DNA of 64,000 bases from Rhodothermales bacterium (GTDB taxonomy: Bacteria; Bacteroidota; Rhodothermia; Rhodothermales; UBA10348). The translations under genes and the position numbers were made by a program. The notes below the pieces were generated by a model. It had not been told where the DNA came from and made no database searches. It saw only the letters and a list, made by a program, of their open reading frames with translations. Location: contig CBDFGO010000002.1 in the NCBI GenBank assembly GCA_965247125.1, positions 964,472-1,028,471 on the forward strand. Reading direction: 5' to 3'. Positions 37,050 to 41,558 of this stretch are shown in pieces; the first letter of the stretch is position 1, and the number at the start of each line of letters is the position of its first letter.

Positions 37050-38186
37050 ATGTCGCATCCAGTAGTCGCGCCCGTCACATCAAGACGAGACAGGAAGGCA
37101 TTTATTCAGTTTCAGTACGATCTGTACTCTGATACCGGAGTGTGGGTGCCACCTCTACGAAGGGATACCTCGAAATCCATCAATCCGAAAAAGAACGCGT
37201 TTTTCGAACACGGCGAAATTCAAACATTTTTAGCTCGAGAGTCTTCGGGTGGAAAAGTAGTAGGTCGAATTGCAGCCATCAAAAATGGAATGCACCTGAA
37301 GAAGTTTGACGACGGCGTCGGTTTCTTCGGATTCTTTGAGTGCATTGATGATGTCGACGTTTCCAGCGCGTTGTTCGAAGCGGCAGCCGACTGGTTGAGG
37401 GGTAGAGGCTTGACTACCATGCGCGGCCCGACCAATCCGTCCATGAACGACGTTGCGGGCCTACTTGTCGGCGGTTTTAACAAGCAGCCTGCGATCCTGA
37501 TGCCCTACAATCACGGGTACTTCGAGCGCCTGCTTGTGGAGAATGGGTTCGAGCGAGTCATGACGATGTGGGCGTACTACACCAATTCAAAACTGATCAA
37601 GTCAGAGAAACTGAGGCGCGGTACCGCCCTGCTGATGCGACGCTACCCGGGGCTTAGCGTCCGGAGAATGGATAAGTCGATCTTCGAACAGGAAGCGAAG
37701 ATCATTCTCGACATCTACAACGACGCCTGGTCCGATAACTGGGGTCACGTCCCCATGACGGATAATGAATTCTCCCAGCTGGCCAAAGAGTTGAAGCAGA
37801 TTGTCGACGAACGCCTGGTGGTAATCGTAGAGGACGAAGGCGAACCGATTGCTTTTGCCATCACGTTGCCAGACCTGAATTTCGTGTTCAAGACACTGAA
37901 GACAGGCAGGCTGCTACCCACTGGAATTTTGAAGCTTCTCTTTCTGGCTTCCTCGGGCGTCATCCGGGAGGTACGTATGCCGTTGATGGGCGTCAGAAAG
38001 TCCCATCAGCGGAAAGGCATCGATGCAATATTGGTCCACCACACCATCGAGAATTCTGCGGAGCTGGGCGTCCTGGGGTGTGAAATGAGCTGGGTGCTGG
38101 ATGAAAATATGGCTCTTCGTAACTCTCTGGAGACCATGGGTGGGATCAAGGACAAAGAATATGCGATGTTGGAGCGGGGGATCTGA
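37050..38186 (+). CDS. GNAT-like N-acyltransferase, probable bacterial ceramide synthase (YghO/bCerS-like)
   Basis: FIQFQYDLY..WVPPL, GRIAAI, GFFGFFE, MRGP, MPYN..Y, WGHVP, EMSWVL; directly downstream of spt. Confidence 0.72.
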   Translation: MSHPVVAPVTSRRDRKAFIQFQYDLYSDTGVWVPPLRRDTSKSINPKKNAFFEHGEIQTFLARESSGGKVVGRIAAIKNGMHLKKFDDGVGFFGFFECIDDVDVSSALFEAAADWLRGRGLTTMRGPTNPSMNDVAGLLVGGFNKQPAILMPYNHGYFERLLVENGFERVMTMWAYYTNSKLIKSEKLRRGTALLMRRYPGLSVRRMDKSIFEQEAKIILDIYNDAWSDNWGHVPMTDNEFSQLAKELKQIVDERLVVIVEDEGEPIAFAITLPDLNFVFKTLKTGRLLPTGILKLLFLASSGVIREVRMPLMGVRKSHQRKGIDAILVHHTIENSAELGVLGCEMSWVLDENMALRNSLETMGGIKDKEYAMLERGI

Positions 38187-38192
38187 TACCTT

Positions 38193-38897
38193 ATGATCGA
38201 CACCGGCGCGATCCGCTTCGTCTATTTTGATCTTGACGATACCATCCTGGATCATGCAAGGGCTGAAAAACTGGCTCTTCAAGACCTGCACAACCAGACC
38301 CCTTCCGTTTTTGACGGACGCTCATTTGATGCGGTACTTTCAGCCTATCGTGAAATCAACCCGATAGTCTGGAAGTTGTATTCTGAGGGCAACTTGACGA
38401 AGCAGCAGGCCAAGGTCGGTCGTTTTACTCAGCTTCTTGAGAAGCTGGATATCGAATCGCAGGCAAGCGACGTGCTTCTCGCAGACGCGTATCTCTCCTG
38501 CTACGCTGATCACTGGAGTCTTATCTCCGGCGCAATAGAGGGCTTTCTGAGAATTGCCAGGTCCTATCCCGTGGGTATTCTCACGAACGGATTCTCTGAA
38601 GTGCAGCGAGCCAAGTTAAACCAGTTTCCACAACTGGAGAGCGTTTCCAGCGCCGTCATCATCAGCGAAGAAGTGGGCGTTCTAAAGCCGGATCCAGTGC
38701 TTTTCGAGCATGCTGCCGCCGCCGTCGGAGTCCCTCCCTAAGCCATTCTGTACGTCGGCGACTCCCTCCGCTCCGACGTCGGCGGCGGTATCGGGGCAGG
38801 TTGGAAGGTGGCGTGGTTCTCGACGCGATCTCACGAACACGAAGATGTCTGGAGCTTCTCTGAGTGGTCCCTTTTGATCGACCTGTTGGACGCGTGA
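38193..38897 (+). pseudogene. HAD-family hydrolase (YjjG-like) interrupted by in-frame TAA at 38739-38741
   Basis: Motif I FDLDDT, TNG, KP; after TAA the same frame continues AILYVGDSLRSDVGGGIGAGW (motif IV) to TGA at 38895-38897. Confidence 0.8.
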
Positions 38898-38944
38898 CGC
38901 GAGAAGGGCGAAATGATCAAGATCTATCTCACTGACTGAACGGC

Positions 38945-38981
38945 AAAAAAAAAAGCCGTCCTTAAAAGGACAGCTTCTTTT
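38945..38981 (-). terminator. Intrinsic terminator ending the minus-strand RNA (possibly bidirectional)
   Basis: Minus strand AAGCTGTCC-TTTTAA-GGACGGCTT running into a 10-T tract; the stem contains a U-G pair that is favourable only on the minus strand. Confidence 0.88.
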
Positions 38982-39712
38982 CCTGCTCCCAGACACGTGA
39001 ACCCCCCCTGGTTTGGTTCGCTCGCCGAAGCCAGCTCTCCCCGCCAGTAGCGGGAGGTTCGAGTCTCATGGATTCCTCCGACCAGGACGAATCCGGGTCT
39101 TCGGTAACACGTGCATCCGTTTCCAGTTGCTCGTGTCGTCTCCATCGTATGGGCACACGATAAAGACTATAGCCCTCAGGTCTTTCGGTCATCGTCTTCC
39201 GTTCCCCCTTGCGGGTTCACTTCCCTCGTTGACCGGCTGCACACTCCTTGCATCTTCCCCTCCGAGGAGGTTCTTCTACCTATCTGTGCGCGGCATTCGC
39301 CTACTGGTTTTGAACATTCTTGTCTTCGGCCGAAGCCGTTTCCTTTCCTATCCCTCCTGGTTTGCGGTGCGTCCACTTCCCGAGCGAAACGCCGGGACGT
39401 TTATGCTCTTTCCGTGGTCGCCTTCCTTTCCCGTCCTTTCTTAGCCTAACCGAAGTTCGACTCTTACATTCCGTTCAGCCCTTCCCGGTCCGGGGATCAC
39501 TTGTTTTCCGTTCCAACCCTTGCGAGTTTTTCCTTCAAACATCCTCCCGTCTCGTTCTGGACTCAGCACCAACTCCAGCAGCTTTCTCTTTTGAAGAACC
39601 CTGCTTTCATCGCCGATGCGAAGGAAACCTTTTTCTACTCTTTCGAGCAGTGGGGCTTGCCTCATGCAGCCTAGAGACTCAGTCGCGTCAAGGAACCGTG
39701 CCGTCAGGCACT
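38945..39712 (-). ncRNA. Candidate large (~770 nt) structured non-coding RNA of unknown family
   Basis: Bounded by a consensus promoter and a terminator; no credible ORF; purine-rich; multiple GAAA/GCAA/UUCG-capped hairpins on the minus strand; ~35 GGA triplets. Confidence 0.75.
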
Positions 39713-39718
39713 GCGACT

Positions 39719-39747
39719 ATTATATGCCGACTTGGGAGCGGAGTCAA
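39719..39747 (-). promoter_or_regulatory. Sigma70-type promoter of the candidate ncRNA
   Basis: Minus strand TTGACT (39747-39742), 17-bp spacer, TATAAT (39724-39719). Confidence 0.85.
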
Positions 39748-39765
39748 TATTAGGGGAGGTAGTTT

Positions 39766-39810
39766 CCATCCACAAGAAATTCACAGGGATGTGCACATCA
39801 GTGTGGATAA
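39766..39810. promoter_or_regulatory. DnaA-box-like array
   Basis: Perfect TGTGGATAA (=TTATCCACA) at 39802-39810 plus 2-mismatch boxes CCATCCACA (39766), AAATTCACA (39777) and TGTGCACAT (39790). Confidence 0.45.
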
Positions 39811-40071
39811 CGATCAGGCGAACACCCGGGAGAACTGGCTGGGCCGTACGCGCAAAAAGCCCGGTCATTGAAGACCGAGCTTTTTGGTGCCCATAGTCAC
39901 TACGCGACTGAGCGCCCTCACAAGAGGACACAATCTCAGGCGGCATGAGTGACATAAATATAAGAGGTTCTGATCGAGCTCGCAAGTGTGCAATAACGGA
40001 CTCTATCAACTTCTATCGTATTGCAGGGTGTATTTATGCAAAAAAACCCGCAGGTTCAATCGCAATAACGG

Positions 40072-40689
40072 CTAAAAGCCGAGTTGATTCAGAAATAATT
40101 CCAGCGACGAGGGTTCTACAATCAGAGTCAAAATGATGCCCCCGAGTGCTCCGCCGAGGTGCGCCTCATGGGCAATTCCGCCTCCTCGAGTGTCTCCTTT
40201 CCGCCTCATCGCCACTACCGAAAACACGACAAATCCAGTGGCGAATATCCACGCGGGAATGCCGATTGGAATTAAAAACAGATAAATTCTGTGCAGCGGA
40301 TAGAAAAGACTGAAGGAAAACACCACACCGGAAATCGCACCGGATGCTCCTACGGCCGAATAAGAGACTGAATCTCGATGCATCCAGGTCGTCAGAAGGT
40401 GTGCGGATAGCTCAGCGCCGAAGAAGATTACGAGGAAGAGTGCCGAGCCGAGCCTGACTTCCAGTACAGGCCCAAAGAAAAACAACGTGATCATATTGAA
40501 CGCCAGGTGTCCCATACTGCCGTGCACAAATCCCCCGCTGACCAGGCGATGAAACTCCCTGTTCTTCAACACACGATGCGGTTTGAATGCGAGCTTGTCG
40601 ATCAGATGACGATCGAAGTACAGTGCATATCCACTCACCAGGACGTTGATGAGTAGTAAGAAGAGAGTAAAGGGAGAACTAGAAAACAC
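40072..40689 (-). CDS. Rhomboid-family intramembrane serine protease
   Basis: HLAFNM, GASG (catalytic Ser), AHEAHLGGA (catalytic His). Confidence 0.93.
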   Translation of the reverse strand: MFSSSPFTLFLLLINVLVSGYALYFDRHLIDKLAFKPHRVLKNREFHRLVSGGFVHGSMGHLAFNMITLFFFGPVLEVRLGSALFLVIFFGAELSAHLLTTWMHRDSVSYSAVGASGAISGVVFSFSLFYPLHRIYLFLIPIGIPAWIFATGFVVFSVVAMRRKGDTRGGGIAHEAHLGGALGGIILTLIVEPSSLELFLNQLGF

Positions 40690-40774
40690 TTTGCCACGCG
40701 ATATATTGAGATCATATTGAGTGCGTGGTGTACGTACCGGGCGATCCCCGGATTCGCTTCAATGATCCAAATTT

Positions 40775-41434
40775 TCAGTTGCAGCTACCATATTCCTGGC
40801 CTCTTTCGCGAGACTCGAAATCGACTCGGACCGATCTGCAGAATCGAGCCATTCTCATTCTCAGCGCAGCTTCTTTCATTCCGGTCAATTGCTCTATTTC
40901 TCGGTAGGTCATGGGCTCGGCAGCGACTCGAAATGATAGTATGGTACGTGTCAGGGAATCGCACTCGCACAACCGGCGAGTAGCCGTCCGTAGCTGGCGC
41001 AATTGATAATCGCTCATCTGGCCCCGGCCAATAAATTCTTTTGTATCCGACGCCAACGAATCGGGATCCCGAATGCCAACATCCTCATGGAAGGGCTCTC
41101 GCAGTTTGCGTTTCCGACTTCGCGTCAGATGGCGCACGAGATTGTTTCTGAACATTCGCCGGGTGTAGCGATCCAGACAGCGAACGTGCATCCAGGATTT
41201 TTGAAATTCGACCAGAGACTCTCCCGCGAGGTCGTGGGCGCAGTTTAGGTCCAGGTTTCGTTCTACAGCCACCTTTCGGCCGAAGTACATCTGTCCCCGA
41301 GCATAAACCAGATGAAACAGACTGGCCCGAGCTCGCGTGTCGCCAGCCTGAGCTGCGTAGAGCAATCGGTCAGAATTCTGAGAGGGGTCATTTGGCCGGG
41401 ACGACCGGTCGGGGGCGCTGCTTGTGGGAAACAT
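40775..41434 (-). CDS. Divergent ECF-type sigma factor-like protein
   Basis: AAQAGDTRARASLF (region 1.2/2), AHDLAGE, region-4 HTH MTYREIEQLTGMKEAALRMRMAR; start moved to ATG 41434. Confidence 0.65.
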   Translation of the reverse strand: MFPTSSAPDRSSRPNDPSQNSDRLLYAAQAGDTRARASLFHLVYARGQMYFGRKVAVERNLDLNCAHDLAGESLVEFQKSWMHVRCLDRYTRRMFRNNLVRHLTRSRKRKLREPFHEDVGIRDPDSLASDTKEFIGRGQMSDYQLRQLRTATRRLCECDSLTRTILSFRVAAEPMTYREIEQLTGMKEAALRMRMARFCRSVRVDFESRERGQEYGSCN

Positions 41435-41558
41435 GGTCCGGTGCTTTTCACTTTGGACACCTATGCACCCTACCCGTAACCTGACGCTGTAGAATTCTCG
41501 TGATGCGATACAAAATTGCTGCCAGCGCGGCAATCAGATACAAGCAGATCCGACCGTT

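Follow-up and report, generated by a model that had tools for sequence, protein, structure and literature searches.

What does the chromosome of Rhodothermales bacterium (UBA10348) encode on its minus strand between a rhomboid-family protease gene and the HAD-family hydrolase gene that converges on it? The question arises from a window of 64,000 nucleotides (nt), the whole stretch of DNA that was analysed (assembly GCA_965247125.1, contig CBDFGO010000002.1, positions 964,472–1,028,471 of the forward strand; the genome is 95.9% complete). An initial annotation, made from the letters alone, had proposed here a novel structured non-coding RNA, possibly of a new class, and the present analysis supports that reading. 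The locus holds a large structured non-coding RNA of 770 nt (38945–39714, minus strand, with a likely start at 39712–39714). It also holds a partner small RNA of ~99 nt (~39852–39950, minus strand), which is placed after the rhomboid stop codon and ahead of the large RNA, and which was found by aligning the DNA upstream of the large-RNA promoter. We think it probable that the two form a lineage-specific two-RNA system, in which the small RNA would serve as a switch or clamp of the large one. All parts of both RNAs described below lie on the minus strand, and position p of the large RNA corresponds to window position 39715-p.

The relation between the two genes is visible in three invariant segments of the small RNA. 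Each is the reverse complement of one of the three motifs that are most conserved in the large RNA and are predicted to be unpaired there. Motif A of the small RNA (ACUCAUGCCGCC, 39950–39939; consensus (A/C)CUCAUGCCGCC) matches site A' of the large RNA (GGCUGCAUGAGG, 39660–39671, RNA positions 44–55), which lies in the region of hairpin H1, over 12 positions with one constant mismatch (helix A). Motif B (CUCAGUCGCG, 39912–39903) complements the 10 positions of site B' (CGCGACUGAG, 39678–39687, RNA positions 28–37), which runs from the inner end of helix P1 across the ACU junction into the outer end of helix P2 (helix B). Motif C (AUGGGCA, 39894–39888) complements the 7 positions of site C' (UGCCCAU, 39155–39149) in the loop of hairpin Ha (helix C). 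In our opinion, the predicted-unpaired nucleotides of the large RNA (the ACU junction, GCAUGAGG and UGCCCAU) are its most conserved ones because they pair with the small RNA.

The complementarity is kept across the family, although the counts come from related genomes that are not independent of one another. In helix A, 10 of the 12 positions are canonical in at least 51 of 57 loci; in helix B, 9 of the 10 positions are canonical in at least 55 of 59. In a contiguous alignment, 95.0% of helix A and 95.8% of inner helix B are paired, against 33–43% when the pairing partner is slid along the alignment as a control. One position of helix A is CG in 42 loci, UG in 8, UA in 5 and UU in 2, and the C-A combination never occurs; one position of helix B is CG in 46 loci and UA in 8, with 5 non-pairs. 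Switches from CG to UA across the two genes are therefore seen in 5 loci for helix A and in 8 for helix B. The six-pair core of helix C is intact in 46 of 46 loci, and its flanks switch partly in step. When the best duplex of each motif on its cognate large RNA is sought, it falls on the expected site in 44 of 47 loci for motif A, 40 of 44 for motif B and 34 of 42 for motif C. The divergent homologue L138, read by eye, carries two extra double changes in helix B (G-C to A-U and C-G to U-A) and lacks both motif C and the Ha loop, and L039 has a multi-base compensatory change in helix A. By its conserved complementarity and compensatory change, the small RNA would thus qualify as a base-pairing RNA partner.

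The small RNA has the appearance of a gene of its own. Its promoter region (39957–39999) comprises CCGTTATTG (39999–39991), a -35 element TTGCGA (39985–39980) and a -10 element TATATT (39962–39957), and 9 of 12 consensus positions are matched. Its terminator (39885–39854) is 96.9% paired across the family, with two-sided change in 9 of 13 pairs. The predicted fold has a minimum free energy (MFE) of -45.4 kcal/mol (z -4.96) and leaves the first 9 nt unpaired. The inner hairpin was 61% paired in a poor MAFFT alignment, and we do not claim it from that count. Of the 78 loci with 250 nt or more of sequence upstream, 60 have a conserved small RNA, and in L137 (from genome G085) it is too diverged to be recognized by eye. 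Rfam gave no match on the small-RNA region, the best score being 19.7 bits. Genome searches employed two covariance models, R1 for the 5' 64 positions of the large RNA and R3 for the small RNA, on an order sample of 151 genomes. Many weak R3 matches (E 1e-4 to 1e-6) are plain terminators, as checked by eye in one genome (G026); only R3 matches adjoining R1 matches were counted, and the raw tally of 104 of 151 genomes was not used. Among the matches listed, 76 of the 88 R1-positive genomes have a small-RNA match upstream on the same contig and strand, at a gap of 89–1100 nt (median 135) from the large RNA.

Several observations weigh against the pairing of the two RNAs as we read it. Most paired positions never vary, and the cross-gene covariation depends on few positions and few lineages of related genomes. 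The inner pairs of helix B vary on one side only; 20 of 59 loci have a mismatch at position 9 of this helix, and 21 of 57 have one at position 0 of helix A. Compared with simple shuffles, the motif duplexes reach only modest z-scores (-2.0 to -2.7). Moreover, an adjacent small-RNA match is missing, among the matches listed, from 12 of the 88 R1-positive genomes; one of these, G068, is explained by a contig break and has the small RNA without the large RNA. Finally, the free small RNA can pair with itself, GCCUG with UGGGC, and this intramolecular pairing could explain in part why motifs A and C are conserved.

The large RNA is a well-defined structure in its own right. The initial annotation had taken the minus strand as the RNA strand, in agreement with the folding energies: the minus strand reaches an MFE of -295.4 kcal/mol (z -5.5, with 0 of 20 shuffles as good), whereas the plus strand does not stand out in this way from shuffled sequence (z -1.9). 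The collection comprises 81 distinct loci after removal of duplicates, of which 68 have the 3' domain and 65 are complete RNAs. For a test of the structure, 70 pairs in 10 helices, drawn from H0, P1, P2, H1, Ha, Hd (three segments) and the terminator, were written down and scored on a MAFFT alignment of the 65 full-length sequences. Standard pairs fill 87.2% of the cells, compared to 43–45% in the slid control; two-sided change occurs in 41 of the 70 pairs and in 403 cells, compared to 87–117 slid. None of five structure measures was matched by any of 500 shuffles. Homologues thus keep base pairs, as the initial annotation had expected of a structured RNA, and not a reading frame (see below).

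The molecule begins with the 5'-terminal hairpin H0 (GUGCC-UGAC-GGCAC, 39698–39711; helix 1, 95.4% of cells paired). Its two ends are then joined by P1 and P2. The 5' strand of P1 (GUUCCUUGACGCG, 39684–39696) pairs with its 3' strand (CGUGUCUGGGAGC, 38985–38997) in 87.2% of cells (helix 2); variation is confined to the 3' side, as G-U wobble, because the 5' strand is almost invariant, and in the divergent L138 and L122 both strands have changed together, again read by eye. P2 (helix 3) is formed by GAGUCUC (39674–39680) and GAGACUC (39061–39067), with 87.8% of cells paired and two-sided change in 4 of 7 pairs. The long 3' hairpin Hd (GAACCUCCC...GCUUCGGC...GGGAGGUUC, 38999–39060; helices 6–9) forms a three-way junction with P1 and P2. 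In its helix 6, 9 of 9 pairs show two-sided change, and two of these pairs are AU or GC in a ratio of ~25:25. The hairpin Ha (39138–39167; helix 5), with its conserved loop, has two-sided change in 10 of 11 pairs; the loop is missing in some members (L101, L044, L047 and L138).

Between these conserved parts lies a variable central domain (39168–39659), which differs widely in length between genera and consists of successive hairpins with GNRA or UUCG tetraloops at their tips. The initial annotation had named six tetraloop hairpins, five of them inside this domain; all are found where it had placed them, and in an RNAalifold consensus of 14 family members, which contains many central-domain helices with compensatory pairs, each one is a consensus helix. 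In RNA positions, they are 64–70/75–81 (compensatory pairs 4 of 6), 182–189/198–205 (5 of 5), 256–261/264–269 (5 of 6), 375–380/385–390 (5 of 6), 501–502/507–508 (1 of 2) and 681–685/690–694 (4 of 5). In L013, a homologue of 1079 nt from genome G009, near-identical UUCG-capped hairpin modules are repeated in tandem in the central domain, which suggests that the variable domain grows by module duplication. The description of the interior as purine-rich is correct for the window copy (62%) and does not extend to the family, with a median of ~55%; purine richness is local to the genus of the window and is not a family trait.

The three intermolecular helices and the fold of the large RNA make use of the same nucleotides. 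Helices A and B employ nucleotides of H1, P2 and inner P1, so that the free and the small-RNA-bound forms of the 5' domain would be mutually exclusive. From this, the following course of events can be proposed. Transcription of the large RNA would start at its own sigma-70-type promoter and stop at its intrinsic terminator. Its ends would pair as P1 and P2 and form, together with Hd, the three-way junction that encloses the chain of tetraloop hairpins. The small RNA, encoded ~140 nt upstream, would be produced from its own promoter and terminator, and read-through from the rhomboid gene might cover it as well. Its single-stranded 5' end (motif A) would pair with the H1 region, motif B with inner P1, the ACU junction and outer P2, and motif C with the Ha loop. 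This docking would remodel or clamp the 5' domain by displacing H1, P2 and inner P1, while helix C would tie the Ha loop, ~500 nt away, to the same domain. We infer, from sequence comparison, that the two RNAs pair in the cell, and that pairing may represent either a conformational switch or an assembly step of a stable and abundant RNA (or RNA-protein) particle.

The signals that delimit the large RNA are conserved as well. The promoter proposed by the initial annotation (39719–39747; -35 TTGACT at 39747–39742, -10 TATAAT at 39724–39719, 17-bp spacer) matches 11 of 12 consensus positions. In 62 of 80 loci, a promoter of the form TTGnnn-N16-18-TAnnnT occupies the corresponding position, with a spacer of 17 bp in 58 of those. 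In a 3-kb scan, 5 promoter-like sites were counted, against 1.9 ± 1.5 expected. The stem-loop and T-tract at the other end, likewise proposed, are present as an intrinsic terminator (38945–38981) that lies opposite the 3' end of the HAD gene. It is helix 10 of the test, with 98.3% of cells paired and two-sided change in 7 of 10 pairs among the 65 sequences, and 64 of the 65 complete homologues end in a T-run. The predicted ends, ~39712 (5') and 38945 (3'), are compatible with the conserved promoter spacing and the terminator. The upstream neighbour on the same strand is the rhomboid-family protease gene (40072–40689, minus strand; Pfam PF01694, E 4e-25), and the HAD-family hydrolase gene (38193–38904, plus strand) lies downstream. 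The rhomboid gene is found upstream in 53 of 81 loci and the HAD gene downstream in 40 of 81, many loci being too short to show them. Since the stretch has its own promoter and terminator, the rhomboid gene is followed by a terminator region and the HAD gene is convergent, the large RNA can be considered an independent transcription unit.

The large RNA is represented in RNA libraries. Twelve runs recorded as RNA, some of them very small, contain 24–41% of the sampled words of the stretch, and contigs from 4 RNA runs (metatranscriptomes of 4 studies) cover 38985–39719. In one marine run, 1227 contigs fall on the large RNA, with a summed word depth of 2e5–6e5. The flanks (38300–38938 and 39720–40400, the small-RNA gene included) are touched by one contig only in the four RNA runs (38469–38620, depth 3.7), the uncovered parts not counting as evidence. 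Since contigs reveal neither the strand nor the ends of a transcript, and depth measures abundance poorly, we conclude only that the large RNA is present in RNA libraries and probably abundant, which agrees with the abundance inferred in the initial annotation. It fits the descriptive class of RNAs that are non-coding, longer than 400 nt, expressed and built of several covarying helices.

The distribution of the large RNA is that of a chromosomal gene of one order. BLAST finds it in 36 of 41 relatives and in 24 of 24 of the same family, and as a single copy in the genome of the window. R1 matches 88 of the 151 genomes of the order, once per genome and at one syntenic site, as the idea of an RNA embedded in the core chromosome had anticipated. 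By family, the matches are 13 of 13, 12 of 13, 10 of 10 and 12 of 13 at the top, and 0 of 7, 0 of 3, 0 of 10 and 0 of 13 in four families; the latter may hold versions that are too divergent, as L137, L138 and L122 suggest. In four genomes (G026, G027, G063 and G025), a model of the 3' end, R2, found ordinary terminators behind protein genes and no homologue, and protein genes lie there directly downstream of the rhomboid gene. The complete large RNAs range from 401 to 1240 nt (n = 65). In the 76 genomes from other orders of the class no homologue was found; 4 marginal R1 matches, in coding-looking DNA without promoter or 3' domain, are taken as chance. An exact scan for the conserved 5' motif in one genome per species (185,579 species) returned 72 stretches, all labelled Rhodothermales, Rhodothermia, Bacteroidetes/Bacteroidota, Flavobacteriia or plain "bacterium". 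They are metagenome-assembled genomes and one cultured strain, Roseithermus sacchariphilus MEBiC09517, with a complete genome (record CP030158). The same motif gave 0 matches in viral contigs, and an association with phages was rejected.

Two other explanations of the locus deserve serious attention. The small RNA could be a trans-acting regulator of messenger RNAs which is titrated by the large RNA as a sponge or decoy, or which triggers the decay of the large RNA. This is the main rival to a two-RNA switch, and we consider it unlikely. The small RNA does resemble a classic regulator in having hairpins, a rho-independent terminator and a seed in its single-stranded 5' end; sponges do show multi-site complementarity to one abundant RNA, and the large RNA appears very abundant in RNA libraries. 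However, a sponge needs neither a closed three-way junction, nor Hd, nor a P1 5' strand that is invariant across the order, and each site takes a different part of one small RNA, which points to a 1:1 complex and not to multivalent capture. Nor do further targets show up: a search for perfect matches only found 2 complements of motif B elsewhere in the genome, where ~8 would be expected by chance, and such targets, being no commoner than chance, were rejected. Alternatively, the large RNA might work by itself as a scaffold, a ribozyme or an RNA-only assembly in the manner of OLE, ROOL or GOLLD. The upstream element would then be the 3' end of the rhomboid transcript with its terminator, or the pairing would be intramolecular within a read-through transcript. 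The fold of the large RNA is indeed well supported without a partner, the Ha loop can be absent, and the interval from the rhomboid stop codon to the small RNA showed no terminator, which makes read-through possible. Yet this account, to which we give a decidedly low probability, has to face three separate complementary blocks with compensatory change across genes, a promoter-like block and a terminator of the small RNA that are both conserved, and a conserved large-RNA promoter that sits between the two genes. The "stand-alone" RNA of the initial annotation holds as regards its own promoter and terminator, but not as regards the conserved partner upstream.

The remaining explanations assign the large RNA to a known kind of gene. 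The interior of the window copy is rich in purines and in GGA (35 GGA in 770 nt), as would be expected of an RNA of the CsrB/CsrC/RsmZ type that titrates a CsrA-like protein, and there is a weak match to CsrC in the 3' half of L138. This possibility is nevertheless largely refuted. The CsrA domain (PF02599) was not found in the genome of the window by a search whose control was positive in E. coli, B. subtilis and T. maritima. Against dinucleotide shuffles, GGA has a median z of 0.7 over the 65 sequences, 12 of which exceed z 2 (median 27 GGA per kb), and conservation falls on the helices and on the three motifs for pairing rather than on GGA loops; a CsrB-like RNA was thus rejected for lack of a detected CsrA and of GGA enrichment across the family. 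The pairing of the 5' and 3' ends recalls 6S RNA, RNase P RNA, tmRNA and the RNA of the signal recognition particle (SRP), and a divergent or expanded version of one of these has, in our opinion, only the slightest probability. The initial annotation had maintained that the large RNA has none of the hallmarks of these RNAs or of domain V of group II introns, and the Rfam search it had called for agrees with a novel RNA. A cmscan of 37500–41500 with Rfam 15 (4227 models, including OLE, ROOL, GOLLD, HEARO, raiA, IMES and group I/II introns) gave 0 matches at E <= 1. The large RNA alone gave none at E 0.1, with best scores of 13.7–20.9 bits compared to cut-offs of 39.8–55, and five of its eight sub-threshold matches, including the best (20.9 bits), fall on the terminator. 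ARAGORN found no tRNA-like or tmRNA-like element at the locus. The genome encodes its RNase P RNA (C2:670153, 237.8 bits), tmRNA (C1:318331, 170.6 bits, in the standard one-piece form) and SRP RNA (C3:267752, 60.9 bits) elsewhere, which excludes the large RNA from these roles. For 6S RNA, no model matches the large-RNA locus. In favour of a 6S role, neither RF00013 nor RF01685 gives a match in the genome of the window, the latter model being uninformative since its control was silent in every genome. A replacement of 6S was rejected, as no model matches and the weak 6S candidates of the order are not mutually exclusive with the large RNA: they co-occur with it in 4 of 8 genomes. A protein-coding or small-peptide gene, for instance the 74-amino-acid (aa) open reading frame (ORF) at 39665–39441 that starts at the invariant AUG of GCAUGAGG, is the explanation in which we place the least credit of all. 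The window copy does contain ORFs of 66–76 aa on the sense strand and of up to 143 aa antisense. Nonetheless, a frameshift disrupts the 74-aa ORF in the homologue from the same genus, where it ends after 19 codons; in several genera only 2 codons are left, and the other frames break in most genera. Among the 65 homologues the longest ORFs begin at unrelated places, the length differences between homologous segments are not multiples of three, and no conserved ORF was found among 14 aligned family members. The coding explanation was rejected on account of these frames broken across genera, in line with the earlier statement that the stretch holds no credible protein.

Three observations from these searches can be added. 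In the scan of 17 homologous loci with cmscan, the sole match was that to CsrC (RF00084) at L138:2367–2564, in the 3' half of the shortest divergent homologue (28.1 bits, E 1.2e-4, compared to a cut-off of 61 bits), which is probably an effect of base composition and of the terminator. Across the order, 8 of 151 genomes (e.g., L148–L153) give RF00013 matches of 29–41 bits, which stay under the cut-off of 46.4, and the rest give none; if the order has a 6S RNA, it is poorly covered by the current model. In the part of the literature that was covered, no such large RNA or partner small RNA was found for Rhodothermales. Likewise, the terms "Rhodotherm", "Salinibacter" and "Bacteroidetes" were not found in the main text of two genome-wide surveys of non-coding RNAs (PMC11109978 and PMC8632094).

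How does a switch or clamp formed by two RNAs compare with known systems? To our knowledge, only a handful of large, ornate bacterial non-coding RNAs have been described, most of them with no assigned function. OLE, ROOL, GOLLD and raiA-motif RNAs are, like the large RNA studied here, long, ornate, non-coding, restricted to lineages, rich in covarying hairpins and abundant (here apparently so). The large RNA, however, matches none of their Rfam models in sequence or structure, belongs to a different phylum, and is chromosomal, single-copy, syntenic and not associated with phages; none of them is known to have a dedicated partner small RNA with three-site complementarity. The pairs GcvB-SroC and RoxS-RosA also consist of two non-coding RNAs that pair through conserved seeds of the small RNA, sometimes at several sites. 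In the present case, by contrast, the "sponge" would measure 0.4–1.2 kb and have a conserved closed architecture, the genes are tandem neighbours inherited together across the order, and the three segments span ~29 positions, with no other small-RNA target evident among perfect matches. The U4/U6 small nuclear RNAs, crRNA-tracrRNA and two-piece tmRNA similarly combine a short and a longer RNA by conserved intermolecular helices which compete with intramolecular ones. Unlike them, the RNAs described here each have a promoter of their own and do not arise by cleavage of a common precursor, have no homology to these systems and no known associated protein gene, and share the genome with a one-piece tmRNA. 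Finally, RNAIII-type RNAs of Staphylococcus are multi-hairpin molecules of several hundred nucleotides with their own promoter and terminator that act by base pairing, as is proposed here; they differ from the large RNA in that the latter has no conserved ORF, is closed by the pairing of its ends, and has the neighbouring small RNA as its sole evident pairing partner.

The large RNA would be a new class in a phylum in which none is known to have been described. A genetically linked partner small RNA, not known from the other large non-coding RNAs, would account for its most conserved nucleotides, and we think that this makes its function approachable by experiment. Given its apparent abundance, reads of the large RNA probably go unassigned in marine, sediment and vent metatranscriptomes.

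Upstream of both promoters there are further conserved elements. A block ahead of the large-RNA promoter (39762–39810, minus strand) contains TTATCCACA (39810–39802) and then TGTGAATTTCTTGTGGATGGAAAC (39784–39762). TTATCCACA matches the DnaA-box consensus, TTATNCACA. In the family, this DnaA-box-like motif is conserved ~55–60 nt upstream of the -35 element of the large RNA and is followed by a conserved TGTGAATTTCTTGTGGA(A/T)GGAA block. There is one perfect TTATCCACA box in the window, and three consecutive ones in the divergent L138 (L138:1970–2030). Counting boxes with at most one mismatch per 150 bp, the locus has one, compared to 3–4 at other sites of the genome. A replication origin was rejected, the locus being off the GC-skew extremum and not the densest cluster of DnaA boxes; from its sequence and position, the motif looks like promoter control and not like oriC. 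Directly upstream of the -35 element of the small RNA, CCGTTATTG is conserved in at least 85% of 60 aligned loci. It shares GTTAT with the box ahead of the large-RNA promoter, so the two genes may share a regulator. One could go further and imagine a bipartite RNA machine in which the large RNA is the catalytic or scaffold core, of a hitherto undescribed kind, and the small RNA its obligatory guide or activator, which would clamp the junction of the 5' domain to the Ha loop. With an output linked to the replication initiator DnaA through the TTATNCACA boxes, the two would form an abundant, cell-cycle-linked particle, either ribonucleoprotein or RNA-only, that is specific to the Rhodothermales. 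We regard this more ambitious proposal as speculative and rather improbable.

Two minor observations concern the surroundings of the locus and the rest of the genome. The HAD gene contains an in-frame TAA at codon 183 (38739–38741, plus strand), after which the frame resumes through a conserved ...ILYVGDSLRSDVGG... motif; the TAA may be a nonsense mutation, a sequencing error or a site of read-through. The group II intron model RF00029 gave no match on the large-RNA locus. A region of domain I of the genome's intron shares a 15-nt identity with the 5' motif of the large RNA (~0.2 expected by chance, by our own estimate); ancestry from a group II intron was rejected, this identity being the only one and pairwise blastn finding nothing longer. 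The intron itself is present in 8 identical copies (RF00029, 65.7 bits) with an intron-encoded ORF of 508 aa, and the copy at G000:C1:322500–324800 (L128) adjoins an IS3-type frameshift element (ALIL, 110.4 bits).

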